A stretch of DNA of 64,000 bases from the NCBI RefSeq assembly GCF_964355755.1, contig NC_092670.1, positions 20,818,795 to 20,882,794 of the forward strand. The letters are read 5' to 3'. Shown here in pieces: positions 11,101 to 32,454 of this stretch. This stretch comes from Antedon mediterranea. Taxonomy: Eukaryota; Animalia; Echinodermata. The notes under the pieces are model-generated. The model did no database searches. It was not told the DNA's origin and saw only the letters and a program-made list of their open reading frames with translations. The position numbers and the translations under genes are program-made. Each line of letters opens with the position of its first letter. The stretch's first letter is position 1.

Positions 11101-14100
11101 AGCACAGAACTTCAATTGTTTCTACCAGTCGTTTGGTTGGGGAATGCCAATATTGATTTCTGGACTGAGTGCCGGGCTGCTGTGGGACGAATATGCTGCA
11201 CCAGAATACAGGTATGCGAGAAAAGTGGAACTTTGTAGTTATCATGCTTACCTACCAATCCTAGGCTCTTGTTTCAAGGGTTACATAAAGAATTCTGTTT
11301 TTCAAACTAAGCTTGCATTATCGTGAATATAATCTAAACAAACATCATTCAAAAGTATAACTATGACATATGACATGACTTCAGGAATCAATTTCTACCA
11401 TTATCACACAGATCATGGCCAGACCCAGACACTGAAGCTATATGGAGCATGGTTGGACCAATCATTTTCTTTATTGCGGTAAATATTCAAAGCTTTCATT
11501 AGAACACGATAATGTCCTAACTCGGTTTAAACGTTGTAAATCATTAAGGAATTACAAGACTATGTTGCAACGAAGCCATATATATGGCTGCGTTCGCGTG
11601 TTCAAGTTAGTGTTTACCGACCAACCGACCGACATAGTGAGCTGTAGAGTCGCGTTAAAAACTGTATAGTATCGTATTCATCAGTAACAACAGTAGTTTG
11701 TGATTTTTAATAGATATGTAGTTGTGTAATTAGGTGCATTCGAGTTCTCAGTAACCATTCCATACATATTTAAATATAAACATGTATTGTATTTTAGATA
11801 TCATTGTTGATGTTGTTGGTTTTAATTGTTCAAAGTTGCAGTGCCAGCTCTATGCATTTGATCAAACAGCAAGAACGGTACAGGCGACAAAAACGAACAA
11901 GGTATTTTCCATAGCTGTAATATCCATATTTCAGAAATAATTAACTAATAGGATATTTATTATCGGTGCTATCTGAATAAAACTATTAAATGTTTTATAA
12001 TTTTTGTTTAGGTTAAAAATTGGGCTGTTCACCTTTCTACTAATATACATAAGTGCTACGTGGTCTATTGGGGTGTTTGGAATCAAGAACATAGATCTAC
12101 AATATGTGTTTGTCATTCTGAATGGAACAATTGGCTTTGTGCTCTTATTATGCATAAACAGATTGTCAAAGAGGGTGAGTATTTAACGTCTTGTTAAGAT
12201 TGTTTCCTACTAGCTGCGCGTCTACGCAAACTCACAAATGAGTTGGGTTATGGGTACGATGTCATTACAATCATGGGCATCTGGACATAGTAAGCCAAAG
12301 TGTCCGATAGTCCAGATCGCTAGTCATACGAATCAAGTTTTTACAAATTCTTTTTAAATTCAATAAGAGTGAATATTATATTTGTAGACAAAACAGGTAC
12401 AAGCCCGAGTGGAGCCATCTATTCATGGACAGTCTTTACCAGGTGCTTATTATGATGAAGATATTTTGATGCCTCACAGTTCAGATTACAAACAAAGCCA
12501 TTATAATGAAGGATACATTGTGACAGAAAGTCCCATACAAAAGCCGATGGAAAAACCAAGCAGGAAAAAATATAGAAAAGAAACTTCTGATACTAAAGTA
12601 TTCTTTACTGAAGGTTCTGCGCAACAAGAACACTATCAACAAAGAACTAGTGACGTTGGTAAGCGGGATGGTAAAGCACGTGAGAAGGTCTTTCGTGAAG
12701 ATATAACACTTCAGATTTTGGAAGAAGGCAAGCCAAACGATGAAGTAATTGATATTGAAGAAGAATATATTACAGGTATATACCATAAGGATAGAATCTC
12801 TGATGTACCAATGGAAGTTGAACCATCTTCAAAACGTAGATCATTAAAGAGATTGACAGGTTCCCTAAAGGATAAAAGCAAGGCACTGATCCATAGCAGT
12901 ACCGGTTTAGGAAAGAAAATAACAGATTATCAGAAGCAGAAATTTCATGGAAAAAATAAAGAATTAACAAAGGATATTCAGGAGACAACTATTACCACGA
13001 GAATTGAAGACGATTCCATTATTGAAATGGTTGATTATCCACAACAACTTGTAGAAACAGAAAGGAGGCAAACCATGCCAGATAAACATGAAACTACAAT
13101 TATCCAAGAAAAACAAGAAATACAGCAAACAAGATCTCCTGGTGTAAGACGTCACTTACAGGATACTAGTGACAATAACCGAAAAGAACCAGAAACAAGA
13201 CGAACGAGGTCACCTGAGCAACAAAGACGTCCGACACAACCAATAGAAAGGCATCCGATTAGATCAAAAGATCAACATAATAGAGACGTTTATAAAACAT
13301 CTGTAACAAGAACAGAAGAGGATTATATCATTAATGAAGATGACAGAGTAGAACGTAGACCAACAAGGTCACCTGAAAGGCAAAGACGTCCAACAGAAAG
13401 GCGTACAGGTAGACCAGATGAACAAGACAAAACAAAAGATGTTTACGAAACAACTGTTACAACAACTGACTATGTCATAACTGAAGATGACAGAAGAGAA
13501 CCTGAAGACATAAGACGAACAAGGTCACCTGAGAATCAAAGACGTCCAATTCAACCAACAGAAAGACGTCCAGGTAGACCAGATGAACAAGACACAATTA
13601 GGGATGTTTACGAAACAACTGTTACAACAACTGATTATATCATTACTGAAGATGGCAGGAGAGAACCTGAAGACATAAGACGAACAAGGTCACCTGAAAG
13701 GCAAAGACGTCCAACAGAAAGGCGTCCTGCTGAACCAGATGAACAAGACATAATTAGAGATGTTTACGAAACAACTGTTACAAGAACAGAAGATGATTAT
13801 ATCATTACTAAAGGCGACAGAAAAGAACCCGAAGCAATAAGACAAACAAGGTCACCTGAAAAACAAAGACGTTCAATTCAACCACCAGAAAGACGTCCAG
13901 GTAGACCAGATGAACAAGGCACAACTAGAGATGTTTACGAAACAACTGTTACAACAACTGACTATGTCATAACTGAAGATGACAGAAGAGAACCTGAAGA
14001 CATAAGACGAACAAGGTCCCCTGAAAAGCAAAGACGTCAAACTCAACCAGCAGAAAGACGTCCAGGTAAACCAGATGAACAAGACACAATTAGAGATGTT

Positions 14101-17100
14101 TATGAAACAACTGTTAAATCAAAAACAGAAGAGGATTATATCATTACTAAAGGTGACAGAAAAGAACCCGAAGCCATAAGACGAACAAGGTCACCTGAAA
14201 AGGAAAGACGTCCAATTCAACCAACAGAAAGACGTCCAGGTAGACCAGATGAACAAGACACAATTAGAGATGTTTACGAAACAACTATTACAACAACTGA
14301 CTATGTCATAACTGAAGATGACAGAAGAGAACCTGAAGCCATAAGACGAACAAGGTCACCTAAAAAGCAAAGACATCCAATTCAACCCACAGAAAGACGT
14401 TCAGGTAGACCAGATGAACAAGACACAATTAGAGATGTTTACGAAACAACTGTTACAACAACTGACTATGTCATAACTGAAGATGACAGAAGAGAACCTG
14501 AAGACATAAGACGAACAAGGTCCCCTGAAAAGCAAAGACGTCAAACTCAACCAGCAGAAAGACGTCCAGGTAAACCAGATGAACAAGACACAATTAGAGA
14601 TGTTTATGAAACAACTGTTAAATCAAAAACAGAAGAGGATTATATCATTACTAAAGGTGACAGAAAAGAACCCGAAGCCATAAGACGAGCAAGGTCACCT
14701 GAAAAGCAAAGACGTCCAATTCAACCAACAGAAAGACGTCCAGGTAGACCAGATGAACAAGACACCATTAGAGATGTTTACGAAACAACTATTGCAACAA
14801 CTGACTATGTCATAACTGAAGATGACAGAAGAGAACCTGAAGCCATAAGACGAACAAGGTCACCTGAAAAGCAAAGACATCCAATTCAACCCACAGAAAG
14901 ACGTTCAGGTAGACCAGATGAACAAGACACAATTAGAGATGTTTACGAAACAACTGTTACAACAACTGACTATTTCATAACTGAAGATGACAGAAGAGAA
15001 CCTGAAGACGTAAGACGAACAAGGTCCCCTGAAAAGCAAAGACGTCAAATTCAACCAGCAGAAAGACGTCCAGGTAAACCAGATGAACAATACACAACTG
15101 AAGATGTTTACGAAACAACTGTTACAACTGACTATGTCATAACTGAAGATGACAGAAGAGAACATGGAGACATAAGACGGACAGGGTCACCTGAAAGGCA
15201 AAGACGTCCAACAGAAAGGCGTCCAGGTAGACCAGATATACAAGACACAACTAAAGATGTTTACGAAACAACTGTTACAACAAGAACAGAAGATGATTAT
15301 ATCATTACTAAAGGTGACGGAAAAGAACCCGAAGCCATAAGACGAACAAGGTCACCTGAAAAGCAAAGACGTCCAATTCAACCAACAGAAAAACGTCCAG
15401 GTAGACCAGATGAACAAGACACAATTAGAGATGTTTACGAAACAACTGTTACAACTAAAACAGAAGAGGATTATATTACTACTAAAGGTGACAGAAAAGA
15501 ACATGAAGACATAAGACGAACAAGGTCACCTGAAAAGCAAAGACGTTCAATTCAACCAACAGACAGACGTTCAGTTAGACCAGATGAACAAGACACAATT
15601 AGAGATGTTTACGAAACAACTGTTACAACAACTGACTATGTCATAACTGAAGATGACAGAAGAGAACCTGAATACATCAGACGAACAAGGTCACCTGATA
15701 AGCAAAGTAGTCCAATTCAACCAACAGAAAGACGTCCAGGTAGACCAGATGAACAAGACACAAATAGAAATGTTTACGAAACAACTGTTACAACAATAAC
15801 AGAAGAGGATTATATTATAACTGAAGATGACAGAAGAGAACCTAAAGACATAAGACGAACAAGGTCACCTGAAAAGCAAACACGTCCAATTCAACCAACA
15901 GAAAGACGTCCAGGTAGACCAGATGAACAAGACACAATTAGGGATGTTTACGAAACAACTGTTACAACAAAAACAGAAGAGGATTATATCATTACTAAAG
16001 GTGACAGAAAAGAGCCCGAAGCCATAAGACGAACAATGTCACCTGAAAAGCAAAGACGCCCAATTCAACCAACAGAAAGACGTTCAGGTAGACCAGATGA
16101 ACAAGACACAACTAGAGATGTTTATGGATCAACTTTTACAACAACTGACTATGTCATAACTGAAGATGACAGAAGAGAACCTGGAGACATAAGACGAACA
16201 AGGTTACCTCAAAAGCAAAGACGTCCAATTCAACCAACAGAAAGACGCCCTGGTAGACCAGATGAACAAGAAACAATAAGAGATGTTTATGAAACAACTG
16301 TTACAGCAACAACAACTGATTATGTAATTACTGAAGATGACAGACGAGAACCCAAAGACACAAGACGAACAAGGTCACCTGAAAAGCAAAGACGTCGAAT
16401 TCAACAAACAGAAAGACGTCCAGGTAGACCAGATGAACAAGACATAATTCGAGATGTTTACGAAAAAACTGTAACAACAAAAACAGAAGAGGATTATATT
16501 ACTACTAAAGGTGACAGAAAAGAACCTGGAGACATAAGACGAACAAGGTCACCTGAAAAGCAAAGACGTCCAATTCAACCAACAGACAGACGTTCAGTTA
16601 GACCAGATGAACAAGACACAATTAGAGATGTTTACGAAACAACTATTACAACAACTGACTATGTCATAACTGAAGATGACAGAAGAGAACCTGAATACAT
16701 CAGACGAACAAGGTCACCTGATAAGCAAAGTAGTCCAATTCAACCAACAGAAAGACGTCCAGGTAGACCAGATGAACAAGACACAAATAGAAATGTTTAC
16801 GAAACAACTGTTACAACAATAACAGAAGAGGATTATATTATAACTGAAGATGACAGAAGAGAACCTAAAGACATAAGACGAACAAGGTCACCTGAAAAGC
16901 AAACACGTCCAATTCAACCAACAGAAAGACGTCCAGGTAGACCAGATGAACAAGACACAATTAGGGATGTTTACGAAACAACTGTTACAACAAAAACAGA
17001 AGAGGATTATATCATTACTAAAGGTGACAGAAAAGAGCCCGAAGCCATAAGACGAACAATGTCACCTGAAAAGCAAAGACGCCCAATTCAACCAACAGAA

Positions 17101-20100
17101 AGACGTTCAGGTAGACCAGATGAACAAGACACAACTAGAGATGTTTATGGATCAACTTTTACAACAACTGACTATGTCATAACTGAAGATGACAGAAGAG
17201 AACCTGGAGACATAAGACGAACAAGGTTACCTCAAAAGCAAAGACGTCCAATTCAACCAACAGAAAGACGCCCTGGTAGACCAGATGAACAAGAAACAAT
17301 AAGAGATGTTTATGAAACAACTGTTACAGCAACAACAACTGATTATGTAATTACTGAAGATGACAGACGAGAACCCAAAGACACAAGACGAACAAGGTCA
17401 CCTGAAAAGCAAAGACGTCGAATTCAACAAACAGAAAGACGTCCAGGTAGACCAGATGAACAAGACATAATTCGAGATGTTTACGAAAAAACTGTAACAA
17501 CAAAAACAGAAGAGGATTATATTACTACTAAAGGTGACAGAAAAGAACCTGGAGACATAAGACGAACAAGGTCACCTGAAAAGCAAAGACGTCCAATTCA
17601 ACCAACAGACAGACGTTCAGTTAGACCAGATGAACAAGACACAATTAGAGATGTTTACGAAACAACTGTTACAACAACTGACTATGTCATAACTGAAGAT
17701 GACAGAAGAGAACCTAAATACATCAGACGAACAAGGTCACCTGAAAAGCAAAGACGTCCAATTCAACCAACAGAAAGACGTCCAGGTAGACCAGATGAAC
17801 AAGACACAATTAGAGATGTTTATGAAAAAACTGTTAAATCAAAAACAGAAGAGGATTATATCATTACTAAAGGTGACAGAAAAGAACCCGAAGCCATAAG
17901 ACGAACAAGGTCACCTGAAAAGCAAAGACGTCCAATTCAACCAACAGAAAGACGTCCAGGTAGACCAGATGAACAAGACACAATTAGAGATGTTTACGAA
18001 ACAACTATTACAACAACTGACTATGTCATAACTGAAGATGACAGAAGAGAACCTGAAGCCATAAGACGAACAAGGTCACCTGAAAAGCAAAGACATCCAA
18101 TTCAACCCACAGAAAGACGTTCAGGTAGACCAGATGAACAAGACACAATTAGAGATGTTTACGAAACAACTGTTACAACAACTGACTATGTCATAACTGA
18201 AGATGACAGAAGAAAACCTGAAGACATAAGACGAACAAGGTTACCTCAAAAGCAGAGACGTCCAATTCAACAAACAGAAAGACGCCCGGGTAGACCAGAT
18301 GAACAAGACACAATTAGAGATGTTTACGAAACAACTGTTACAACTGATTATGTCATAACTGAAGATGACAGAAGAGAACCTGAATACATAAGACGAACAT
18401 GGTCACCTGAAACGAAAAGGCGTCCAACTCAACCAACAGAAAGACGTCCAGGTAGACCAGATGAACAAGACACAATTAGAGAAAGTTACGAAGCAACTGT
18501 TACAACTGACTATGTCATAACTGAAGATGACAGACGAGAACCTGAAGACACAAGACGAACAAGGTCACACGAAAAGCAAATACGTCCAACTCAACAAACA
18601 GAAAGACGTCGTGGTAGACCAGATGAACAAGACACAATTAGAGATGCTTACGAAACAACTGATTATGTCATTACTGAAGATGACAGACAAGAACCCGAAG
18701 ACACAAGACGAAAAAGGTCACCTGAAAAGCAAAGGCGTCCAATTCAACCAACAGAAAGACGTCTTGGTAGACCAGATGAACAAGAAACAATTAGAGATGT
18801 TTTTGAAACAACTGTTACAGCAACAACAACTGATTATTTCATTACTGACGATGACAGACGAGAACCCGAAGACACAAGACGAACAAGGTCACCTGAAAAG
18901 CAAAGACGCCCAACTCAACAAACAGAAAGACGTCCAGGTAGACCAGATGAACAAGACATAATTAGAGATGTTTACGAAAAAACTGTAACAACTGATTATG
19001 TCATAACTGAAGATGACAGACGAGAACCCGAAGACACAAGACGAACAAGGTCACCTGAAAAGCAAAGACGTCCATCTCAACAAACAGAAAGACGTCCAGG
19101 TAGAACAGATGAACAAGACATAATTAGAGATGTTGACGAAAAAACTGTAACAAATGATTATGTCATAACTGAAGATGACAGACGAGAACCCGAAGACACA
19201 AGGCGAACAAGGTCACCTAAAAGGAAAAGACGTCCTATTCAACCAACAGATAGACGTCAAGGTAGACAAGATGAACAAGACACAATTAGGGATGTTTACG
19301 AAACAACTGTTACAACAACTGATTATATCATTACTGAAGATGGCAGGAGAGAACCTGAAGACATAAGACGAACAAGGTCACCTGAAAGGCAAATACGTCC
19401 AACAGAAAGGCGTCCTGCTGTACCAGATGAACAAGACATAATTAGAGATGTTTACGAAACAATTGTTACAAGAACAGAAGAGGATTATATCATTACTAAA
19501 GGAGACAGAAAAGAACCCGAAGCAATAAGACAACCAAGGTCACCTGAAAAACAAAGACGTCCAATTCAACCAACAGAAAGACGTCCAGGTATACCAGATG
19601 AACAAGACACAATTAGAGATGTTTACGAAACAACTGTAACAACAACTGATTACGTCATAACTGAAGATGGCAGAAAAGAACCTAAAGACATAAGACGAAC
19701 AAGGTCACCTGAAAAGCAGTGGGGTCCGCTTCAACCAACAGATAGACGTCCAGGTAGACCAGATGAACAAGACATAACCAAAGATGTTTATGAAACAACT
19801 GTTACAACAACTGATTATGTCATAACTGAAGATGACAAAAGAGAACCTGAATACATAAGACGAACAAGGTCACCTGAAAAGCAAAGGCGTCCACATCAAC
19901 CAACAGAAAGACGTCCTGGTAGACCAGATGAGCAAGACATAACCAGAGATGTTTATGAAACTGTTACAACAACTGATTTTGTCATTACTGAAGATGACAG
20001 ACGAGAACCTGAAGACAGAAGACGAAAAAAGTCACCTGAAAAGCAAAGGCGTCCAATTCAACCAATACAAAGACGTCCATTTAGACCAGAAGAGCAAGAA

Positions 20101-23100
20101 ACAACTAGGGACAGTTACGAAACAACTGTTACAACAACTGATTATGTCATTACTGAAGATGATAGAAGAGAACCCAAAGACATAAGACGAACAAGGTCAC
20201 CAGAAAAGCAACGACGTTCAACAAAACCAGTAGACAGCAACTTTACTGGAAAAAACAAAAACACAATAAATGAACAATATTCTGATGGCGGAACGAAGCG
20301 CGATTCCAAAACCGAGTTTGGCAGTATTGACCATCCATTTAAATCCCAATATTTTCCTAAAAGAAATGATCGCAGAGACAGTCTTACTAGATTGGGATAC
20401 ACTAAAAGGTTCTCAGATACAACTCAACCATTTACCAGTGACATTGATAGCATTTCTGAAATAGAAGGGCTGCAACTGGAACCACAATTTGTGAAGAAAG
20501 ATGTCGTTCCACTACAAAGAACACTCGACAAGATACTTTTAGAACCAGAAAATATTCTTCAAGAGAATGAGTTAACACAAAGGAATGTTTTACAAGAACT
20601 TGACAAGGAAGTTTTAGAAATTATTTCTGAACGGGGGACGACGACAAAGACAGGTATTATTGCCATACAAGGAACAGACATTGTAGATAAACTAAGAGAA
20701 ATAAAACTAAATGAGCGAAGCTCACAACAAAAAAATCCTAGTAAGTTTGACAGCAAAAAACTTAAGTTCATGATTTTAGATGTTGGTGATAAATTAACAA
20801 CGCTTGAAAGACATTTTGACGAAGCAAGTGGTTTGAAAGCTATTCCACTTGACAGACCATTTGAGGCTTATATAGTGAATGTTGATGGCAGCCTTGTAGT
20901 CAGTCAGCCATTTGTATTCAGTTATGACAGAGATACAGCAACATATCGTAGACTGTCAATAAAACAACCAGTAAAGTATTATGAAGAAGGAGAGAAAATG
21001 AAAGAGACTGGATACACATATCGTAAAGAACAATTAGATGAGTTTTTAGTTCAAGTAGGAAAAGATAAAATAAGAAAGTGTCCTATTAAAATTGTAGAAA
21101 ATGATGACCCTGCTGCAAAATATATGTACGATATTGATCAAATAAAACTAATCATTCCGCATCCAGGAGATGATAGGTATGATATCAAATACATGAAACG
21201 ATATCAAGAAGAACCATGGTATATTGATCCCTATCCCATAAATGAAGATTTTATAGAGGCTATTGTGGTAAGACGGGATGGGACTCCAGAAACAGTCCAC
21301 TTACTGAAATACGAAAGTAAGAATACTTATTCAATAGTGATGTCAACTTCCGATCAAAATGAACTTGAGAGTGCAATAATAGCCAGCGAAAGTAATACCA
21401 AAATGCCTTCTCAAACAATTGAAATACCTTCAAGCCAACAACTTGAATCACCGATAGATAATGATAGCAGCACAGACACTGATATTTCATACGTAATTAA
21501 AACTATTGAGAAAATCGAAGAATCTGAACGAGAGTTGAAAGACGAACAAATAGTTGATGATGAGTCAACTCAAAGACGACGACAAGATATTATAGAAACA
21601 ACTACTACCACTACTACTGATGAAAGAATACGAGAACCTGTTGTACAAAGGTATGGTGATAGGAAATATGTTGTTGAAAGACGTGAAGAGTCACCGCAAA
21701 GACCAAGACAAGATATCATGGAAACAACTACTACCACTACTGCTGATGAAAGAACACGAGAACCTGTTGTACAAAGGTATGGTGATAGGAAATATGTAGT
21801 TGAAAGACGTGAAGAGTCACCTCAAAGACCAAGACAACAAGAAATCATAGAAACAACTACTACAACAACTACTACTGATGAAATCCCACAAAAACCTGCT
21901 GTTAAAAGACCAAGTAGTGAAAAGATAAGAACCTATGTAGTAGAGAGGCGTGACGAATCCCCTCAAAGACCAAGACAACAAGATATCATAGAAACAACTA
22001 CAACCACTACTACTGATCAAAGAACACGAGAACCTGTTGTACAAAGGTATGGTGATAGGAAATCTGTAGTTGAAAGACGTGAAGAGTCACCTCAAAGAAG
22101 ACCAAGACAAGATATTATAGAAACTACAACCACCACTACTGATGAAAGAACACGAGAACCTGCTGTAAAAAGACCAAGTAGTGAAAAGATAAGAACCTAT
22201 GTAGTAGAGAGGCGTGAAGAATCCCCTCAAAGACCAAGACAACAAGATATCACAGAAACAACTACAACCACTACTACTGATCAAAGAACACGAGAACCTG
22301 TTGTACAAAGGTATGGTGATAGGAAATCTGTAGTTCAAAGACGTGAAGAGTCACCTCAAAGAAGACCAAGACAAGATATTATAGAAACAACTACAACCAC
22401 CACTACTGATGAAAGAACACGAGAACCTGATGTAAAAAGGTATGGTGATAGGAAATATGTTGTTGAGAGACGTGAAGAGTCACCACAAAGACCAAGACAA
22501 CAAGAAATCATAGAAACAACTACTACCACTACTACTGATCAAAGAACACCAGAACCTGCTGTAAAAAGACCAAGTAGTGAAAAGATAAGAACCTATGTAG
22601 TAGAGAGGCGTGAAGAATCCCCTCAAAGACCAAGACAACAAGATATCATAGAAACAACTACAACCACTACTACTGATGAAAGAACACGAGAACCTTCTGT
22701 ACAGAGGTATGGTGATAGGAAATCTGTAGTTGAAAGACGTGAAGAGTCACCTCAAAGACCAAGACAAGATATCATAGAAACAACTACTACAACCAATACT
22801 ACTGATGAAAGAACACGAGAACCTGCTGTAAAAAGACCAAGTAGTGAAAAGATAAGAACCTATGTAGTAGAGAGGCGTGAAGAATCCCCTCAAAGACCAA
22901 GACAACAAGATATCATAGAAACAACTACAACCACTACTACTGATGAAAGAACACGAGAACCTGCTGTACAAAGGTATGGTGATAGGAAATCTGTAGTTGA
23001 ACGACGTGAAGAGTCACCTCAAAGACCAAGACAAGACATTATAGAAACAACTACTACAACCACTACTACTGATCAAAGAACACGAGAACCTGTTGTAAAG

Positions 23101-26100
23101 AGACCAAGTAGTGAAAAAATAAGAACATATGTAGTAGAGAGGCGTGAAGAATCACCTCAAAGACCAAGCCAACAAGAAATCATGGAAACAACTATTACCA
23201 CTACTACTGATCAAAGAACACGAGAACCTGTTGTACAAAGGTATGGTGATAGGAAATCTGTAGTTGAAAGACGTGAAGAGTCACCTCAAAAAAGACCAAG
23301 ACAAGATATTATTGAAACAACTACAACCACCACTACTGATGAAAGAACACGAGAACCTGCTGTACAAAGGTATGGTAATAGGAAACATGTTGTTGAGAGA
23401 CGTGAAGAGTCACCGCAAAGACCAAGACAACAAGATATCATAGAAACAACTACTACCACTACTACTGATGACATAACACGAGAACCTGTTGTACAAAGGT
23501 ATGGTGATAGGAAATATGTTGTCGAAAGACGTGAAGAGTCACCGCAAAGACCAAGACAAGATATCATAGAAACAACTACTACCACCACTACTGATGAAAG
23601 AACACGAGAACCTGTTGTACAAAGGTATGGTGATAGGAAATATGTCGTTGAGAGACGTGAAGAGTCACCGCAAAGACCAAGACAACCAGAAATCATAGAA
23701 ACAACTACTACCACTACTACTGATCAAAGAACACAAGAACCTGCTGTAAAAAGACCAAGTAGTGAAAAGATAAGAACCTATGTAGTAGAGAGGCGTGAAG
23801 AATCCCCTCAAAGACCAAGACAACAAGATATCATAGAAACAACTACAACCACTACTACTGATGAAAGAACACGAGAACCTGCTGTACAAAGGTATGGTGA
23901 TAGGAAATCTGTAGTTGAACGACGTGAAGAGTCACCTCAAAGACCAAGACAAGACATTATAGAAACAACTACTACAACCACTACTACTGATCAAAGAACA
24001 CGAGAACCTGTTGTAAAGAGACCAAGTAGTGAAAAAATAAGAACATATGTAGTAGAGAGGCGTGAAGAATCACCTCAAAGACCAAGCCAACAAGAAATCA
24101 TGGAAACAACTATTACCACTACTACTGATCAAAGAACACGAGAACCTGTTGTACAAAGGTATGGTGATAAGAAATCTGTAGTTGAAAGACGTGAAAAGTC
24201 ACCTCAAAAAAGACCAAGACAAGATATTATTGAAACAACTACAACCACCACTACTGATGAAAGAACACGAGAACCTGCTGTACAAAGGTATGGTAATAGG
24301 AAACATGTTGTTGAGAGACGTGAAGAGTCACCGCAAAGACCAAGACAACAAGAAATCATAGAAACAACTACTACCACTACTACTGATCAAAGAACACAAG
24401 AACCTGTTGTACAAAGGTATGGTGATAGGAAATATGTAGTTGAAAGACGTGAAGAGTCACCACAAAGACCAAGACAAGATAATATAGAAACAACTACTAC
24501 CACTACTACTGATGAAAGAACACGAGAACCTGCTCTACAAAGGTATGGTGATAGGAAATATGTTGTTGAAAGACGTGAAAAGTCACCACAAAGACCAAGA
24601 CAACAAGAAATCATAGAAACAACTACTACGACTACTACTGATCAAAGAACACAAGAACCTGCTGTAAAAAGACCAAGTAGTAAAAAGATAAGAACCTATG
24701 TAGTAGAGAGGCGTGAAGAATCCCCTCAAAGACCAACACAACAAGATATCATAGGAACAACTACAACCACTACTACTGATGAAAGAACACAAGAACCTGT
24801 TGTGCAAAGGTATGGTGATAGGAAATATGTTGTTGAAAGACGTGAAGAGTCACCTCAAAGACCAAGACAACAAGAAATCATAGAAACAACTACAACCACT
24901 ACTACTGATGAAATAACACAACAACCTGCTGTACAAAGGTATGGTGATAGGAAATATGTTGTTGAAAGACGTGAAGAGTCACCTCAAAGACCAAGACAAC
25001 AAGAAATCATAGAAACAACTACTACAACCACTACTGATGAAATAACACGAGAACCTGTTATACAAAGGTATGGTGATAGGAAATATATTGTTGAAAGACG
25101 TGAAGAGTCACCTCAAAGACCAAGACAACAAGAAATCATAGAAACAACTACAACCACTACTACTGATGAAATAACACAACAACCTGCTGTACAAAGGTAT
25201 GGTGATAGGAAATATGTTGTTGAAAGACGTGAAAAGTCACCGCAAAGACCAAGACAACAAGAAATCATAGAAACAACTACTACAACGACTACTGATGAAA
25301 TAACACGAGAACCTGTTATACAAAGGTATGGTGATAGGAAATATGTTGTTGAACGACGTGAAGAGTCACCTCAAAGACCAAGACAACAAGAAATCATAGA
25401 AACAACTACAACCACTACTACTGATGAAATAACACAACAACCTGCTGTACAAAGGTATGGTGATAGGAAATATGTTGTTGAAAGACGTGAAAAGTCACCG
25501 CAAAGACCAAGACAACAAGAAATCATAGAAACAACTACTACAACGACTACTGATGAAATAACACGAGAACCTGTTATACAAAGGTATGGTGATAGGAAAT
25601 ATGTTGTTGAACGACGTGAAGAGTCACCGCAAAGACCAGGAAAGGAAATCATAGAAACAACTACAACCACTACTACTGATGAAATAACACAACAACCTGC
25701 TGTACAAAGGTATGGTGATAGGAAATATGTTGTTGAAAGACGTGAAAAGTCACCGCAAAGACCAAGACAACAAGAAATCATAGAAACAACTACTACAACC
25801 ACTACTGATGAAATAACACGAGAACCTGCTGTACAAAGGTATGGTGATAGGAAATATGTTGTTGAAAGACATGAAGAGTCACCTCAAAGACCAAGACAAG
25901 ATATCATAGAAACAACTACTACAACCACTACTACTGACGAAAGAACACAAGAACCTGCTGTAAAAAGACCAGGTAGTGAAAAGATAAGAACCTATGTAGT
26001 AGAGAGGCGTGAAGAATCCCCTCAAAGACCAAGACAACAAGATATCATAGAAACAACTACTACCACTACTACTGATGACATAACACGAGAACCTGTTGTA

Positions 26101-28722
26101 CAAAGGTATGGTGATAGGAAATATGTTGTCGAAAGACGTGAAGAGTCACCGCAAAGACCAAGACAAGATATCATAGAAACAACTACTACCACTACTACTG
26201 ATGAAATAACACAACAACCTGCTGTAAAAAGACCAGGTAGTGAAAAGATAAGAACCTATGTAGTAGAGAGGCGTGAAGAATCCCCTCAAAGACCAAGACA
26301 ACAAGATATCATAGAAACAACTACTACCACTACTACTGATGACATAACACGAGAACCTGTTGTACAAAGGTATGGTGATAGGAAATATGTTGTCGAAAGA
26401 CGTGAAGAGTCACCGCAAAGACCAAGACAACAAGAAATCATAGAAACAACTACAACCACTACTACTGATGAAAGAACACGACAACCTGTTGTACAAAGGT
26501 ATGGTGATAGTAAATATGTTGTTGAAAGACGTGAAGAGTCACCTCAAAGACCAAGACAACAAGAAATCATAGAAACAACTACTACAACTACTACTGATGA
26601 AAGTACACGAGAACCTGCTGTACAAAGGTATGGTGATAGGAAATATGTTGTTGAAAGACGTGAAGAGTCACCGCAAAGACCAAGACAACAAGAAATCATA
26701 GAAACAACTACAACCACTACTACTGATGAAAGAACACGAGAACCTGTTGTACAAAGGTATGGTGATAGGAAATCTGTTGTTGAAAGACGTGAAGAGTCAC
26801 CTCAAAGACCAAGACAACAAGATATCATAGAAACAACTACTACAACCACTACTACTGATGAAAGAACACGAGAACCTTCTGTACAGAGGTATGATAGGAA
26901 ATATGTAGTTGAAAAACGTGAAGAATCCCCTCAAAGACCAAGACAACAAGAAATCATAGAAAGTACTACAACCACTACTACTGATGAAAGAACACGAGAA
27001 CCTGTTGTACAAAGGTATGGTGATAGGAAATCTGTTGTTGAAAGACATGAAGAGTCATCGCAAAGACCAAGACAAGATATCATAGAAACAACTACTACAA
27101 CAACTACTACTGATGAAAGAACACGAGAACCTGCTGTAAAAAGGTACGGTGATAGGAAATCTGTTGTTGAAAGACATGAAGAGTCACCTCAAAGACCAAG
27201 ACAACAAGAAATCATAGAAACAACTACTACAACAACTACTACTAATGAAATAACACGCGAACCTGCTGCACAAATGTATGATTATGAGACTAGAAAATAT
27301 GTAATTGGAAGAAGAGAAGAGTCACCTCAAAGGCCAAGACAAGAAATCATAGAAACGACTACAACTACTACTACTACTGATGAAAGAACACGAGAACCAT
27401 ATGATAAAGAGACAATAAGTTATATAGCAGACAGACGTGAAGAATCACCTCGAAGACAAAGACGAGCAATCATAGAAACAACTACATCTACAGACAAAAT
27501 AACAAAAGAGCCAATTGTTCAAAAATCTGATGAGATAATAAGCTATGTTGTAGAAAATAGAGACGATGATGTGGCAAGAAGACATGGATACGTAGAGACA
27601 ACTACAACAATGAATAGTGGTACAATTGGTGACCTCACGATCGGTGATACTAGAACGTGGACTGATGAAAAACGTGTTGGATATCCAGAATATATTACTA
27701 CTAATACATCTGATGGAAGAATTACAGATGTTTCTCACCAGTACGGGTATGAAACAATTACAACTACAACAGACGAAGAACAAAAAGATCATCATTGCGA
27801 ACATTGTAGCAAGCCTATAGTAAAGGAGGAAGAAGGAGAAGTTGACAGTGAACTGTCTTATGTTATCAATACTATAGAGACAATTGAAGGGGCTGAAGGT
27901 GAGGTGACTGAAGGTTTATATATTACACAAACTAATGAATTTGATAACCAAACCAGTAGTACAACATATCAACAGAATACTGGGCAACAAGAAGTCACTA
28001 GAGACAGGTACAATGCAGGATGGTCGACCGATCAAGCTTCAACACAATATGAATACCCAACTGGCGGTGGTGAAAATATTGTCATTAACGAGGTAGGCCA
28101 GAAAAGTAGTCCATTTTTAACATATAAATCAGTAGGTTACAGGGACCAAGAAGGCACATCTGGCGTCCAAGATATTCAGAGTAGTAGTATAGCCCATGAT
28201 TTCACCAGCTATTCAGCCAGCAGTAACTATGGTTCGACAACATACGGCAATAGTGGGGGAGTTACTGACGGCAACAGTGCTGTGTCTGGAGAAACACAGG
28301 CTTACACAGACATCCAGACCGAAGTAATGGAAACTGATGGACAGACGTTCCGAGGAGTTTCAGGAGGATCCACTTCTGAGCGTGGTAGAAGTCGTTTCAG
28401 AACTCAATTATCAGGTGTTGTCTTAAGACCAAGAGCCAGTGCGAAATCTAGATATGATGTAGACGTGGAATCAGTTAAGATCACAGCTGAAGAAACGACA
28501 CAGATGCAAAGTACACCCATGGACTATGACGGGTCCAATACAGGCTGGTCGACCGATCAAGCTTCAACACAATATGAATACCCAACTGGCGGTGGTGAAC
28601 ATATTCAATCAGTAAGTTACAGAGACCAAGAAGGCACATCTGGTATCCAAGATATTCAGAGTGGTAGTATAGCCCATGAATTCACCAGCTATTCAGTCAG
28701 CAGTAACTATGACCCCAGATAA
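3287..28722 (+). CDS. Adhesion-GPCR-like receptor with YWTD beta-propeller, GAIN/GPS, 7TM and a giant repetitive C-terminal tail (~6,356 aa, 21 coding exons)
   Basis: Exons: 3287-3356, 4283-4315, 4732-5181, 5588-5830, 6705-6867, 7211-7332, 7446-7700, 8005-8046, 8260-8376, 8661-8756, 8958-9018, 9560-9683, 9839-9915, 10096-10210, 10455-10552, 10794-10905, 10988-11211, 11412-11478, 11798-11901, 12012-12174, 12388-28722. All introns are GT-AG with compatible phases. The first 20 exons total 2,736 nt (912 codons) with no stop. Confidence 0.85.
5588..7700 (+). CDS. Exons 4-7: six-bladed YWTD (LDL-receptor class B) beta-propeller
   Basis: Blade motifs: VLISD; GIAFDPVDSVVYWSDRSKKVIERAYLDG; LALDLVNRRLFFD..IERSNLDG; FVYFSS; PKGLAISSDGKGIYWTDG..VMESDLSG; DVAAIGEYLFVIT; closing strand PRKIKI. 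Confidence 0.85.
8005..10210 (+). CDS. Exons 8-14: short GAIN-like region ending in a GPS motif
   Basis: ...LASRLVSIVT...KPVCTYIDRTSLSFSPDGCKTFASDARKNGVSCSCHEGTSFALLM: four GPS cysteines and a Stachel-like TSFALLM directly before TM1. Confidence 0.8.
8387..8515 (+). mobile_element. Harbinger-like MITE (agctctgtctacactatcaaact family), 3'-degenerate copy
   Basis: Same left TIR and internal atatggtagtgatatgacatcatcatgtccat core as eight other copies in the window. Confidence 0.7.
10455..12174 (+). CDS. Exons 15-20: class B2 (adhesion-type) seven-transmembrane domain
   Basis: TM1 LLIVTCLATVLSILSLLLIIF; TM2 LIRNLSIALLLANV; TM3 IHFSLTSVFVWLFLM; TM4 FGWGMPILI; TM5 IWSMVGPIIFFIAISLLML; TM6 LFTFLLIYISATWSIG; TM7 QYVFVILNGTIGFVLLL. 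Confidence 0.88.
12388..28722 (+). CDS. Giant terminal exon (16,335 nt coding, 5,444 aa): predicted intracellular tail
   Basis: Acceptor tttgtag at 12381-12387 is phase 0 and in frame with ORF 12409-28722. It matches the phase-0 donor AGG|gtgag at 12174 after TM7. No stop over 16 kb. Confidence 0.85.
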   Translation, partial: TKQVQARVEPSIHGQSLPGAYYDEDILMPHSSDYKQSHYNEGYIVTESPIQKPMEKPSRKKYRKETSDTKVFFTEGSAQQEHYQQRTSDVGKRDGKAREKVFREDITLQILEEGKPNDEVIDIEEEYITGIYHKDRISDVPMEVEPSSKRRSLKRLTGSLKDKSKALIHSSTGLGKKITDYQKQKFHGKNKELTKDIQETTITTRIEDDSIIEMVDYPQQLVETERRQTMPDKHETTIIQEKQEIQQTRSPGVRRHLQDTSDNNRKEPETRRTRSPEQQRRPTQPIERHPIRSKDQHNRDVYKTSVTRTEEDYIINEDDRVERRPTRSPERQRRPTERRTGRPDEQDKTKDVYETTVTTTDYVITEDDRREPEDIRRTRSPENQRRPIQPTERRPGRPDEQDTIRDVYETTVTTTDYIITEDGRREPEDIRRTRSPERQRRPTERRPAEPDEQDIIRDVYETTVTRTEDDYIITKGDRKEPEAIRQTRSPEKQRRSIQPPERRPGRPDEQGTTRDVYETTVTTTDYVITEDDRREPEDIRRTRSPEKQRRQTQPAERRPGKPDEQDTIRDVYETTVKSKTEEDYIITKGDRKEPEAIRRTRSPEKERRPIQPTERRPGRPDEQDTIRDVYETTITTTDYVITEDDRREPEAIRRTRSPKKQRHPIQPTERRSGRPDEQDTIRDVYETTVTTTDYVITEDDRREPEDIRRTRSPEKQRRQTQPAERRPGKPDEQDTIRDVYETTVKSKTEEDYIITKGDRKEPEAIRRARSPEKQRRPIQPTERRPGRPDEQDTIRDVYETTIATTDYVITEDDRREPEAIRRTRSPEKQRHPIQPTERRSGRPDEQDTIRDVYETTVTTTDYFITEDDRREPEDVRRTRSPEKQRRQIQPAERRPGKPDEQYTTEDVYETTVTTDYVITEDDRREHGDIRRTGSPERQRRPTERRPGRPDIQDTTKDVYETTVTTRTEDDYIITKGDGKEPEAIRRTRSPEKQRRPIQPTEKRPGRPDEQDTIRDVYETTVTTKTEEDYITTKGDRKEHEDIRRTRSPEKQRRSIQPTDRRSVRPDEQDTIRDVYETTVTTTDYVITEDDRREPEYIRRTRSPDKQSSPIQPTERRPGRPDEQDTNRNVYETTVTTITEEDYIITEDDRREPKDIRRTRSPEKQTRPIQPTERRPGRPDEQDTIRDVYETTVTTKTEEDYIITKGDRKEPEAIRRTMSPEKQRRPIQPTERRSGRPDEQDTTRDVYGSTFTTTDYVITEDDRREPGDIRRTRLPQKQRRPIQPTERRPGRPDEQETIRDVYETTVTATTTDYVITEDDRREPKDTRRTRSPEKQRRRIQQTERRPGRPDEQDIIRDVYEKTVTTKTEEDYITTKGDRKEPGDIRRTRSPEKQRRPIQPTDRRSVRPDEQDTIRDVYETTITTTDYVITEDDRREPEYIRRTRSPDKQSSPIQPTERRPGRPDEQDTNRNVYETTVTTITEEDYIITEDDRREPKDIRRTRSPEKQTRPIQPTERRPGRPDEQDTIRDVYETTVTTKTEEDYIITKGDRKEPEAIRRTMSPEKQRRPIQPTERRSGRPDEQDTTRDVYGSTFTTTDYVITEDDRREPGDIRRTRLPQKQRRPIQPTERRPGRPDEQETIRDVYETTVTATTTDYVITEDDRREPKDTRRTRSPEKQRRRIQQTERRPGRPDEQDIIRDVYEKTVTTKTEEDYITTKGDRKEPGDIRRTRSPEKQRRPIQPTDRRSVRPDEQDTIRDVYETTVTTTDYVITEDDRREPKYIRRTRSPEKQRRPIQPTERRPGRPDEQDTIRDVYEKTVKSKTEEDYIITKGDRKEPEAIRRTRSPEKQRRPIQPTERRPGRPDEQDTIRDVYETTITTTDYVITEDDRREPEAIRRTRSPEKQRHPIQPTERRSGRPDEQDTIRDVYETTVTTTDYVITEDDRRKPEDIRRTRLPQKQRRPIQQTERRPGRPDEQDTIRDVYETTVTTDYVITEDDRREPEYIRRTWSPETKRRPTQPTERRPGRPDEQDTIRESYEATVTTDYVITEDDRREPEDTRRTRSHEKQIRPTQQTERRRGRPDEQDTIRDAYETTDYVITEDDRQEPEDTRRKRSPEKQRRPIQPTERRLGRPDEQETIRDVFETTVTATTTDYFITDDDRREPEDTRRTRSPEKQRRPTQQTERRPGRPDEQDIIRDVYEKTVTTDYVITEDDRREPEDTRRTRSPEKQRRPSQQTERRPGRTDEQDIIRDVDEKTVTNDYVITEDDRREPEDTRRTRSPKRKRRPIQPTDRRQGRQDEQDTIRDVYETTVTTTDYIITEDGRREPEDIRRTRSPERQIRPTERRPAVPDEQDIIRDVYETIVTRTEEDYIITKGDRKEPEAIRQPRSPEKQRRPIQPTERRPGIPDEQDTIRDVYETTVTTTDYVITEDGRKEPKDIRRTRSPEKQWGPLQPTDRRPGRPDEQDITKDVYETTVTTTDYVITEDDKREPEYIRRTRSPEKQRRPHQPTERRPGRPDEQDITRDVYETVTTTDFVITEDDRREPEDRRRKKSPEKQRRPIQPIQRRPFRPEEQETTRDSYETTVTTTDYVITEDDRREPKDIRRTRSPEKQRRSTKPVDSNFTGKNKNTINEQYSDGGTKRDSKTEFGSIDHPFKSQYFPKRNDRRDSLTRLGYTKRFSDTTQPFTSDIDSISEIEGLQLEPQFVKKDVVPLQRTLDKILLEPENILQENELTQRNVLQELDKEVLEIISERGTTTKTGIIAIQGTDIVDKLREIKLNERSSQQKNPSKFDSKKLKFMILDVGDKLTTLERHFDEASGLKAIPLDRPFEAYIVNVDGSLVVSQPFVFSYDRDTATYRRLSIKQPVKYYEEGEKMKETGYTYRKEQLDEFLVQVGKDKIRKCPIKIVENDDPAAKYMYDIDQIKLIIPHPGDDRYDIKYMKRYQEEPWYIDPYPINEDFIEAIVVRRDGTPETVHLLKYESKNTYSIVMSTSDQNELESAIIASESNTKMPSQTIEIPSSQQLESPIDNDSSTDTDISYVIKTIEKIEESERELKDEQIVDDESTQRRRQDIIETTTTTTTDERIREPVVQRYGDRKYVVERREESPQRPRQDIMETTTTTTADERTREPVVQRYGDRKYVVERREESPQRPRQQEIIETTTTTTTTDEIPQKPAVKRPSSEKIRTYVVERRDESPQRPRQQDIIETTTTTTTDQRTREPVVQRYGDRKSVVERREESPQRRPRQDIIETTTTTTDERTREPAVKRPSSEKIRTYVVERREESPQRPRQQDITETTTTTTTDQRTREPVVQRYGDRKSVVQRREESPQRRPRQDIIETTTTTTTDERTREPDVKRYGDRKYVVERREESPQRPRQQEIIETTTTTTTDQRTPEPAVKRPSSEKIRTYVVERREESPQRPRQQDIIETTTTTTTDERTREPSVQRYGDRKSVVERREESPQRPRQDIIETTTTTNTTDERTREPAVKRPSSEKIRTYVVERREESPQRPRQQDIIETTTTTTTDERTREPAVQRYGDRKSVVERREESPQRPRQDIIETTTTTTTTDQRTREPVVKRPSSEKIRTYVVERREESPQRPSQQEIMETTITTTTDQRTREPVVQRYGDRKSVVERREESPQKRPRQDIIETTTTTTTDERTREPAVQRYGNRKHVVERREESPQRPRQQDIIETTTTTTTDDITREPVVQRYGDRKYVVERREESPQRPRQDIIETTTTTTTDERTREPVVQRYGDRKYVVERREESPQRPRQPEIIETTTTTTTDQRTQEPAVKRPSSEKIRTYVVERREESPQRPRQQDIIETTTTTTTDERTREPAVQRYGDRKSVVERREESPQRPRQDIIETTTTTTTTDQRTREPVVKRPSSEKIRTYVVERREESPQRPSQQEIMETTITTTTDQRTREPVVQRYGDKKSVVERREKSPQKRPRQDIIETTTTTTTDERTREPAVQRYGNRKHVVERREESPQRPRQQEIIETTTTTTTDQRTQEPVVQRYGDRKYVVERREESPQRPRQDNIETTTTTTTDERTREPALQRYGDRKYVVERREKSPQRPRQQEIIETTTTTTTDQRTQEPAVKRPSSKKIRTYVVERREESPQRPTQQDIIGTTTTTTTDERTQEPVVQRYGDRKYVVERREESPQRPRQQEIIETTTTTTTDEITQQPAVQRYGDRKYVVERREESPQRPRQQEIIETTTTTTTDEITREPVIQRYGDRKYIVERREESPQRPRQQEIIETTTTTTTDEITQQPAVQRYGDRKYVVERREKSPQRPRQQEIIETTTTTTTDEITREPVIQRYGDRKYVVERREESPQRPRQQEIIETTTTTTTDEITQQPAVQRYGDRKYVVERREKSPQRPRQQEIIETTTTTTTDEITREPVIQRYGDRKYVVERREESPQRPGKEIIETTTTTTTDEITQQPAVQRYGDRKYVVERREKSPQRPRQQEIIETTTTTTTDEITREPAVQRYGDRKYVVERHEESPQRPRQDIIETTTTTTTTDERTQEPAVKRPGSEKIRTYVVERREESPQRPRQQDIIETTTTTTTDDITREPVVQRYGDRKYVVERREESPQRPRQDIIETTTTTTTDEITQQPAVKRPGSEKIRTYVVERREESPQRPRQQDIIETTTTTTTDDITREPVVQRYGDRKYVVERREESPQRPRQQEIIETTTTTTTDERTRQPVVQRYGDSKYVVERREESPQRPRQQEIIETTTTTTTDESTREPAVQRYGDRKYVVERREESPQRPRQQEIIETTTTTTTDERTREPVVQRYGDRKSVVERREESPQRPRQQDIIETTTTTTTTDERTREPSVQRYDRKYVVEKREESPQRPRQQEIIESTTTTTTDERTREPVVQRYGDRKSVVERHEESSQRPRQDIIETTTTTTTTDERTREPAVKRYGDRKSVVERHEESPQRPRQQEIIETTTTTTTTNEITREPAAQMYDYETRKYVIGRREESPQRPRQEIIETTTTTTTTDERTREPYDKETISYIADRREESPRRQRRAIIETTTSTDKITKEPIVQKSDEIISYVVENRDDDVARRHGYVETTTTMNSGTIGDLTIGDTRTWTDEKRVGYPEYITTNTSDGRITDVSHQYGYETITTTTDEEQKDHHCEHCSKPIVKEEEGEVDSELSYVINTIETIEGAEGEVTEGLYITQTNEFDNQTSSTTYQQNTGQQEVTRDRYNAGWSTDQASTQYEYPTGGGENIVINEVGQKSSPFLTYKSVGYRDQEGTSGVQDIQSSSIAHDFTSYSASSNYGSTTYGNSGGVTDGNSAVSGETQAYTDIQTEVMETDGQTFRGVSGGSTSERGRSRFRTQLSGVVLRPRASAKSRYDVDVESVKITAEETTQMQSTPMDYDGSNTGWSTDQASTQYEYPTGGGEHIQSVSYRDQEGTSGIQDIQSGSIAHEFTSYSVSSNYDPR
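13200..20220 (+). repeat. Coding tandem array 1, ~165-bp (52-58 aa) unit, ~42 copies
   Basis: Consensus RRTRSPEKQRRPIQPTERRPGRPDEQDTIRDVYETTVTTTDYVITEDDRREPEDI; copy number estimated from span divided by unit length. Confidence 0.95.
21580..27490 (+). repeat. Coding tandem array 2, ~126-138-bp (42-46 aa) unit, ~45 copies, two unit variants
   Basis: Consensus QEIIETTTTTTTDERTREPVVQRYGDRKYVVERREESPQRPRQ; the variant has KRPSSEKIRTY in place of QRYGDRKY. Confidence 0.95.
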
Positions 28723-31450: not shown

Positions 31451-32454
31451 CAGTAAAACCCTCTCATTCAGCAGGACACCTCTATTAAAGGGACACTTTG
31501 CCAAGAACCTAACAAGGGTAACACTATGGCCAACCCTATTAAAGGGACACTTTGCCAAGAACCTAACAAGGGTAACACTATGGCCAACCTCTATTAAAGG
31601 GACACTTTGCCAAGAACCTCACAAGGGTAACACTATGGCCAACCCTATTAAAGGGACACTTTGCCAAGAACCTAACAAGGGTAACACTATGGCCAACCTC
31701 TATTAAAGGGACACTTTGCCAAGAACCTAACAAGGGTAACACTATGGCCAACCCTATTAAAGGGACACTTTGCCAAGAACCTAACAAGGGCAACACTATG
31801 GCCAACCTCTATTAAAGGGACACTTTGCCAAGAACCTCACAAGGGTAACACTATGGCCAACCTCTATTAAAGGGACACTTTGCCAAGAACCTAACAAGGG
31901 TAACACTATGGCCAACCTCTATTCTAGGGACACTTTGTCAAGAACCTAACAAGGGCAACACTATGGCCAACCTCTATTAAAGGGACACTTTGCCAAGAAC
32001 CTAACAAGGGTAACACTATGGCCAACCTCTATTAAACGGACACTTTGCCAAGAACCTAACAAGGGCAACACTATGGCCAACCTCTATTAAAGGGACACTT
32101 TGCCAAGAACCTAACAAGGGCAACACTATGGCCAACCTCTATTAAACGGACACTTTGCCAAGAACCTAACAAGGGTAACACTATGGCCAACCTCTATTAA
32201 AGGGACACTTTGCCAAGAACCTAACAAGGGTAACACTATGGCCAACCCTATTAAAGGGACACTTTGCCAAGAACCTAACAAGGGTAACACTATGGCCAAC
32301 CTCTATTCTAGGGACACTTTGCCAAGAACCTAACAAGAGTAATACTATGGCCAACCCTATTAAAGGGACACTTTGCCAAGAACCTAACAAGGGTAACACT
32401 ATGGCCAACCTCTATTAAAGGGACACTTTGTTTGGTCCCAACAGTGTTCTACTG
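31451..32454. mobile_element. TA-flanked CAGT...ACTG MITE (Tc1/mariner-like ends) expanded by an internal minisatellite
   Basis: ta|cagtaaaac ... gttctactg|ta. Related non-expanded fragments (cctctattaa/gggacact/ggggttctactgta) occur near 47405-47470, 48780-49010, 52083-52137 and 57170-57205. Confidence 0.65.
31478..32430 (+). repeat. Minisatellite, 53/55-bp unit, ~17 near-identical copies
   Basis: Unit acctctattaaagggacactttgccaagaacctaacaagggtaacactatggcca, head-to-tail with no spacers. Confidence 0.95.

Follow-up and report, generated by a model that had tools for sequence, protein, structure and literature searches.

In a 64,000-nucleotide stretch of the genome of the feather star Antedon mediterranea (contig NC_092670.1, positions 20,818,795 to 20,882,794 of the forward strand; hereafter the window) we found that the last exon of a gene for a putative adhesion-type receptor encodes a tail of 5,444 residues, predicted to be cytoplasmic and disordered. 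The tail contains two tandem arrays, and the units of the second carry an 11-residue block, RRxESPQRPRQ, which is constrained. Our leading reading, a tentative one, is that the tail works as a multivalent platform on which short linear motifs are repeated.

The tail exon and its two tandem arrays

Antedon is a comatulid crinoid of the family Antedonidae, and the window (about 34% G+C) is eukaryotic, with short exons and GT..AG introns. Among 5.8 billion proteins, the sole giant match to the tail was a 6,206-residue "uncharacterized protein isoform X2" of A. mediterranea at NCBI (P0002), which is 100% identical to it and carries a precomputed PF00002 assignment. The gene model is already at NCBI, but it is unnamed and undescribed; term searches of one full-text literature collection revealed no paper describing the gene or giant tails in adhesion-type G-protein-coupled receptors (GPCRs).

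Frame 1 is open for 5,444 codons (about 16.3 kb), whereas the remaining two forward frames contain 254 and 698 stops. The parts of the tail are listed below; the identities are to a relative from the feather star Anneissia japonica (P0053), and TM stands for transmembrane helix.

12388..28722 (+): last exon, with the entire 5,444-codon tail and a TAA stop; open in frame 1, joint 12173>12387, 100% identity to P0002
12388..12792 (+): unique beginning of the tail with a conserved counterpart in Anneissia; blastp of Antedon residues 701–897 with Anneissia residues 44–244 (TM6–7 and tail start), 38.6% over 210 residues, E 3e-35
13390..20221 (+): array 1, about 41 units of 51–58 residues; Tandem Repeats Finder (TRF) 165 bp x 41.0, 84% matches
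20659..21390 (+): conserved middle domain between the arrays (P0002 residues 3520–3763); 46.6% over 251 residues, E 3e-59
21558..27398 (+): array 2, about 45 units of 41–47 residues with Thr runs; TRF 129 bp x 44.7, 83% matches
28150..28476 (+): conserved C-terminal stretch (P0002 residues 6017–6125); 36% over 110 residues to residues 2527–2621 of the relative, E 4e-9

The translation was split into 40 units of array 1 and 45 units of array 2. All unit lengths are multiples of 3 at the nucleotide level, and all indels are in frame.

The pattern S/T-P-x-K/R is the consensus of CDK-type, proline-directed kinases. A preliminary description of this DNA had counted about 85 S-P-x-K/R motifs between positions 13200 and 27490. 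The motifs are real and all lie within this interval, but their number is 80, between a first motif at 13369 and a final one at 27445. By kind they are SPQR (41), SPEK (28), SPER (4), SPDK (2), SPQK (2) and one each of SPKK, SPKR and SPRR; 35 are placed in array 1, 43 in array 2 and two just outside the arrays. An SPx[KR] motif is present in 34 of the 40 aligned units of array 1 and in 44 of the 45 units of array 2. The exact strings RTRSPEK/R and EESPQR, stated earlier for almost every unit, are less frequent than that: RTRSPE[KR] occurs in 22 of 40 and EESPQR in 36 of 45 units. When the residues of the tail were shuffled 200 times, 3.6 ± 1.8 motifs were obtained, with a maximum of 11. The excess is real, but it arose by tandem duplication of two founder motifs and not by 80 independent events.

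The Thr runs and the mixed Arg/Glu/Asp charge reported earlier were also found. The tail consists of 15.6% Thr, 15.0% Arg, 12.3% Glu, 8.5% Asp and 7.6% Pro, and it contains 42 runs of at least six Thr (six to eight residues long). Despite this amount of Thr, the dipeptide TP occurs just three times. The runs are encoded by ACT (184 codons), ACA (72), ACC (39) and ACG (4); since four codons are mixed, they are not simple slippage and seem to be kept at the protein level. As to a common origin of the two arrays, alignment of the profiles of array-1 and array-2 units with hhalign gave weak and conflicting results, with probabilities of 3% and 23%, and one Anneissia unit matched the array-1 model with E 0.0034.

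It should be mentioned that both arrays have additional internal structure. In array 1 a block of about 1 kb was recently duplicated at 15652–17532, where units 14–19 recur as units 20–25 with a near-identical protein sequence; a 339-bp period reported by TRF reflects the same higher-order structure. In array 2, approximately a quarter of the units, scattered between 21844 and 26300, belong to a variant of 46–47 residues with KRP[SG]SEKIRTY in place of QRYGD-RKY. This variant adds a Ser-Ser pair, that is, further possible phospho-acceptors outside the 80 counted motifs. The unique C-terminal region (27900–28700) contains an internal duplication, in which GWSTDQASTQYEYPTGGGE ... SYRDQEGTSG.QDIQS.SIAH.FTSYS.SSNY is present twice.

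Conservation of the Ser-Pro sites within Antedon and in Anneissia

To compare the units of one array we used the pairwise ratio of nonsynonymous to synonymous differences (pN/pS), which overcounts shared history because block duplications make the units non-independent; in array 2 it was 0.40 overall, 0.04 in the SPQR columns and 0.45 in the rest of the unit. SPQR is the best-conserved window of four columns in this array, with the Thr run a close second. The consensus residue is found in 45 of 45 units for S, in 44 for P, in 44 for Q and in 45 for R, and synonymous changes have occurred at the S codon in 9 units and at the P codon in 15. In array 1 the corresponding values were 0.67 for SPEK and 0.72 for its neighbours; the match to the consensus was 0.93 for S, 0.97 for P, 0.82 for E and 0.85 for K, and six other columns were invariant. 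The expectation that SPxK/R is conserved between units beyond the neighbouring codons was thus borne out in array 2 and failed in array 1.

We searched 1.84 billion representatives exhaustively with HMMER, using a query of 636 residues that reaches from the last part of array 1 across the middle domain into the beginning of array 2. The search returned three matches: P0002 itself, the A. japonica protein P0053 (XP_033118469.1; E 2e-173) and an unnamed ENA protein (P0054; E 1e-10). The last was set aside, as it appears to be an unrelated repeat protein. In the searches made, matches of the tail family are confined to Antedon and Anneissia, and the gene may be restricted to this crinoid lineage. 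Anneissia japonica is a feather star of the family Comatulidae, and its protein, automatically named "titin-like" by NCBI, begins with TM6–TM7 and then follows the same plan as the Antedon tail.

A hidden Markov model (HMM) of the Antedon array-2 units matched 36 units in the Anneissia protein. Their agreement with the Antedon consensus was 0.75 at SPQR and 0.40 elsewhere, with a mean of 0.43 over 43 positions, and the best-agreeing windows fall within positions 10–17, ESPQRPRQ. SP was found in 24 and [ST]Px[KR] in 23 of the 36 units, and two units have Thr in place of Ser (GETPQRP). An HMM of the array-1 units matched seven full units and one partial unit, and the units of both species share VITEDxxREPExIRxTR. 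Copy numbers in Antedon and Anneissia are about 41 and 7–8 for array 1 and about 45 and 36 for array 2.

Judging from these alignments, the array-2 block RRxESPQRPRQ and the Thr run are under purifying selection in Antedon and have been kept in Anneissia. The array-2 site is old and constrained as part of the whole 11-residue block. The SP site of array 1 is either new in the Antedon lineage or lost in Anneissia.

These data bear on the possibility that the arrays have no motif-specific function and grew by runaway expansion, neutral for the most part, in a disordered tail that is tolerated. Such an expansion would agree with the pN/pS of 0.72 in array 1, with the very different copy numbers in the two species and with the recent identical block duplications. 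It would not account for a frame kept open over 16.3 kb with all indels in frame while the other frames are full of stops, for the low pN/pS of array 2, lowest at SPQR, or for the preservation of the motif, the middle domain and the C-terminal stretch across two crinoid families; contigs resembling spliced RNA (see below) are also present. We consider this explanation very unlikely.

The receptor core and the position of the tail

The tail exon follows an exon that encodes TM6 and TM7. Both splice sites, a donor at 12174/12175 and an acceptor that lies behind AG at 12387/12388, are in phase 0 and agree with the consensus, and in P0002 the junction reads ...CINRLSKR/TKQVQARVEPS. Five public sequencing runs (X1–X5) contain at least half of the sampled words from 12388–21557. 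Run X1, whose kind was guessed as RNA, comes from a study separate from that of X2–X4, and X2–X5 are unlabelled; none of the runs is listed as RNA for this interval. The reads of X1–X4 were assembled against positions 10400–13380. Contigs of X2–X4 run straight through the introns, so these runs are DNA-like. Contigs of X1 skip six GT..AG intervals (10552>10794, 10905>10988, 11207>11408, 11477>11797, 11899>12010 and 12173>12387), the depth of X1 is about 70–140 over exons versus 0–27 in most intron bins, and a single X1 contig of 1,010 letters spans 12387–13380. The joint between TM7 and the tail is weak alone, yet both the splice consensus and the NCBI model agree with it. The exons of the receptor part are as follows.

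5563..5949 (+): exon with YWTD (LDL-receptor class B) repeats, ectodomain, in an open stretch; Pfam Ldl_recept_b E 2.2e-4, 22.1 bits versus a cutoff of 21; residues present in P0002
10028..10210 (+), end approximate (taken from the GT donor): GPS-motif exon; Pfam GPS, residues CSCHEGTSFALLMD in P0002
10455..10552 (+): TM1 exon; AG acceptor, joint 10552>10794 in X1 contig, hydropathy peak at residues 505–541
10794..10905 (+): TM2 exon; joints 10552>10794 and 10905>10988, GT..AG, X1 contig
10988..11211 (+): TM3–TM4 exon; Pfam 7tm_2 E 2e-5, model positions 79–154, X1 joints
11412..11478 (+): TM5 exon, first part; Pfam 7tm_2 positions 148–174, E 0.02, joints 11207>11408 (cut +4) and 11477>11797 (cut +1)
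11798..11901 (+): exon encoding the last part of TM5 plus the third intracellular loop; X1 joints, residues in P0002
12012..12174 (+): TM6–TM7 exon, donor AGG/GTGAGT, phase 0; found from the sequence, hydropathy peaks at residues 709–732 and 735–760, 38.6% identity to the Anneissia protein

A short repeat of the CGACC type is located at 11600–11660, in the intron between the TM5 exons. It has many loose ends in the assembly and a depth of about 1e5–1e6 in the DNA-like runs versus about 30–300 nearby, and it is a high-copy genomic repeat or a satellite seed.

The 7tm_2 matches lie on the open stretches 10958–11323 (24.4 bits, cutoff 20.6) and 11374–11499. Six hydropathy TM peaks were revealed in P0002, and TM4 was located via the Pfam alignment. 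A hydrophobic, signal-like N-terminus is present at residues 7–29, and YWTD-like repeats are visible in the ectodomain. The Pfam GPS match on the open stretch 10028–10282 (E 9.5e-4) scored 20.1 bits, under the cutoff of 22.5. In CSCHEGTSFALLMD (window positions 10140–10200) the usual His-Leu before the cleaved Thr/Ser is replaced, so that self-cleavage of the receptor is doubtful. From these features the core is identified, at the level of sequence, as an adhesion-type family-B receptor: 7tm_2, ectodomain modules and a signal-like N-terminus are present and GPS is borderline. The closest named matches to residues 1–775 were CELSR1 proteins, mostly with 23–30% identity over 38–42% of the query, and no close orthologue of the receptor part was found among the matches listed. 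With adhesion GPCRs such as CELSR1 (ADGRC1) the Antedon protein shares a 7tm_2 core and a large ectodomain, with a borderline GPS region; it differs in that the ectodomain has YWTD repeats where the former have cadherin, EGF and laminin domains.

The TM peaks extend to residue 760, and the highest hydropathy over 19 residues in the tail is 1.08; the scan thus revealed no hydrophobic segment in the tail after TM7. Given seven helices and an ectodomain outside with its borderline GPS, a cytoplasmic position is predicted for the tail. The earlier placement of the motifs on a receptor tail is supported by this topology, by the phase-0 exon that follows the TM6–TM7 exon, by the NCBI model joining the two and by the X1 contig with a GT..AG joint.

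The 42 runs of six to eight Thr recall O-glycosylated mucin repeats, and if the arrays formed an extracellular mucin-like domain, their motifs could not be kinase sites. This is extremely unlikely because the tail is predicted to be cytoplasmic: its exon comes after helix seven of a receptor that has a signal-like N-terminus and, in the ectodomain, a borderline GPS, no later hydrophobic segment is seen, and the order of TM6–7 followed by the tail recurs in Anneissia. The composition is also against it, as about 40–46% of the residues are charged, unlike the repeats of proline-, threonine- and serine-rich (PTS) mucins.

Both arrays are predicted to be disordered. In a charge-hydropathy plot their mean hydropathies of 0.30 and 0.32 lie far into the disordered side of the boundary (0.417); the ectodomain and the middle domain, by contrast, are placed among folded chains. 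An AlphaFold2 (AF2) model of four array-1 units, for which other unit blocks were aligned in 19 rows, had a mean predicted local distance difference test score (pLDDT) of 33 and contained no DSSP element. The control model of the middle domain, made with a 2-row alignment, was not usable; its pLDDT was 34, with 15 helices and strands. Since a likely folded domain scored equally low (33–34), pLDDT alone does not show disorder, and the informative part of this comparison is that the array model lacks any predicted element. The middle domain itself has no Pfam family, no PDB match better than E 0.49 and no atlas lead. A Pfam scan of five pieces of the tail gave no family above the cutoff.

Charge of the arrays and comparison with neurofilaments

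Array 1 has a fraction of charged residues of 0.46 and a net charge per residue of −0.010; for array 2 the values are 0.40 and +0.006. The arrays are thus strong, near-neutral polyampholytes, as had been inferred for the tail earlier. Compared with shuffled sequences, charges are segregated to an equal extent in array 1 (z 0.3) and are more evenly mixed in array 2 (z −3.0), and we rejected on these values a blocky charge pattern that would drive self-association.

The preliminary description had interpreted the tail as a neurofilament-like, phospho-switchable brush. According to it, multisite phosphorylation of SP alters the net charge and hence the extension or condensation of a grafted polyampholyte. 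Part of this description is justified: like neurofilaments H and M, the tail is a long, presumably disordered polyampholyte, near-neutral before phosphorylation, with many tandem sites of the Ser-Pro-x-Lys type (78 SPx[KR] in the two strongly charged arrays). For neurofilament H (NF-H), PMC11626179 describes the unphosphorylated tail as a charge-neutral, condensed polyampholyte that becomes an expanded brush on KSP phosphorylation.

The dose is different. There is one SPx[KR] per 65.1 residues in array 1 and per 45.3 residues in array 2, whereas NF-H is reported to have about 50 KSP motifs (PMC11626179) in a tail of 660 residues (PMC2132801). By these figures NF-H would have about one KSP per 13 residues, and the density in Antedon is about 3.5–5 times lower. 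With −2 per site, the net charge per residue computed for full phosphorylation is only −0.041 in array 1 and −0.038 in array 2, a shift of only about −0.04. The sites of array 1 are not conserved, the conserved block of array 2 reaches well beyond SPxR, more than a role in charge alone would call for, and a brush would need dense grafting of the receptor. The Antedon tail also differs in being anchored to a seven-helix receptor and not to an intermediate-filament rod, and in having units of 41–58 residues with Thr runs. No rod family was found above the Pfam cutoff in the five scanned pieces of the tail, the remainder of the protein being the 7TM receptor. The analogy with neurofilaments would hold in kind and be several-fold weaker in dose, and we regard the charge brush as unlikely.

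Possible role of the tail

A platform of repeated linear motifs fits these data better than a neurofilament-like charge brush. Each of the approximately 45 RRxESPQRPRQ blocks of array 2, next to a Thr run, would be recognized by a partner. The most likely partners would be a proline-directed kinase and, after it, a binder that depends on phosphorylation. The array-2 site, with S-P-x-R and Arg at −3 and −4, presumably fits the preferences of several proline-directed kinases. The tail could then recruit many partner copies under the membrane, tuned by phosphorylation, as a high-valency platform or tether. Array 1 would add length and SPEK sites that are younger or dispensable and weakly constrained, and length together with near-neutral mixed charge may also make the tail a long flexible tether.

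A number of observations weigh against this platform. The conserved block is 11 residues long and could therefore be a binding motif that is never phosphorylated. The SPEK sites of array 1 are not better conserved than their neighbours, the best-conserved window there being PDEQ, and SP was found in none of the eight Anneissia array-1 units, which have AR, SR or GR at that position. Owing to the recent block duplications, only 34 of the 40 units of array 1 and 40 of the 45 of array 2 are distinct. The comparison is limited to two species, and the Anneissia model, starting at TM6, may be partial. The pLDDT is as low in the likely folded middle domain as in the array. At the transcript level, the shorter side of the TM7–tail joint 12173>12387 (cut +1) has 29 letters, below the required 31, X1 is a guessed RNA run, and transcription of the arrays is based on a share of 0.58 of sampled words and not on aligned reads.

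In a related explanation the tail is a passive tether or spacer, or a docking array independent of phosphorylation, with Ser-Pro kept for binding or conformation and not as a kinase site. The conserved unit (the 11-residue block, the Thr run and an EP pair) extends beyond SPxR, the charges are well mixed, as in an expanded chain, and the automatic name of the Anneissia relative points to titin. On the other side, S and P are the least variable residues of array 2, the replacement of Ser by Thr in the two Anneissia units preserves a phospho-acceptor, the site presumably suits proline-directed kinases, and the five scanned pieces of the tail yielded neither Ig nor FN3 nor any other domain of titin. 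Such a tether or docking array seems to us rather improbable.

Concerning titin itself, its PEVK region and the tail are alike in being very long, repetitive, charged, proline-containing and probably unfolded, and both may act as a flexible tether. The tail differs in that P, E, V and K together make up about 30% of it, so it is not dominated by these residues, and in belonging to a membrane receptor; the Anneissia protein has no precomputed Pfam domain. Thus, the protein is not a member of the neurofilament or titin families: rod, Ig/FN3 domains, motif density and composition do not match.

A closer functional analogy may be offered by the C-terminal domain (CTD) of RNA polymerase II. The CTD belongs to a nuclear enzyme and is a tandem array of the heptad YSPTSPS, a docking platform coded by phosphorylation, whose copy number varies between lineages. 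Both have a short conserved Ser-Pro motif repeated in tandem in a tail that is, or is predicted to be, disordered. The unit of the CTD has seven residues while those of Antedon have about 41–58 and are placed on a membrane receptor, and there is no sequence relation. With these differences, the tail seems to resemble the CTD more than a charge-driven brush.

It can even be hypothesized that crinoids evolved an undescribed class of receptor appendage with a CTD-like phosphorylation code, in which the 45-fold RRxESPQRPRQ and the Thr runs would make of one receptor a switchable high-valency hub, a tether or condensate seed, under the membrane. This bolder proposal appears to us rather improbable as a whole.

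Characterised tails of adhesion GPCRs have some hundreds of residues, and we know of no parallel for an intracellular receptor appendage of such size and repeat structure. The tail of the Antedon receptor is repetitive and has 5,444 residues; if made as annotated, it exceeds the complete receptor part (762 residues) about sevenfold in length and would be an extreme case among the intracellular tails of adhesion GPCRs. Such tails are reported to shape G-protein and arrestin signalling (PMC12236479). With about 45 copies of a conserved 11-residue motif, the gene offers a natural system for the effects of motif number, multisite phosphorylation and chain length in signalling or anchoring near the membrane. 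The presence of a constrained and a barely constrained array side by side in one gene is also useful for studying the evolution of repeats in disordered regions.

Other features of the window

Downstream of the receptor gene, a copy of a non-long-terminal-repeat (non-LTR) retrotransposon of the LINE (long interspersed nuclear element) type was revealed. Two exon-like stretches of a neighbouring gene are located on the opposite strand.

39720..43917 (+): non-LTR retrotransposon copy
39720..40454 (+): frame of 244 codons resembling open reading frame 1 (ORF1) of the retrotransposon
41038..43584 (+): retrotransposon frame of 848 codons with Exo_endo_phos (E 1.3e-4) and RVT_1 (E 1.4e-33), continuing past the stop at 43585–43917
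46154..46504 (−): open, exon-like stretch (neighbouring gene) without a Pfam match
54961..55278 (−): exon-like stretch (neighbouring gene) with a C2-domain match, E 2.8e-5, 24.7 bits versus a cutoff of 22

In addition, five non-coding tandem repeats were found: a G-rich 20-mer repeated 17 times (423–737), a 55-mer repeated 17.4 times with 95% matches (31478–32430), a 134-mer repeated 5.4 times (37636–38354), a 47-mer repeated 6.5 times (49006–49308) and a CT-rich 26-mer repeated 11.4 times (53797–54107).

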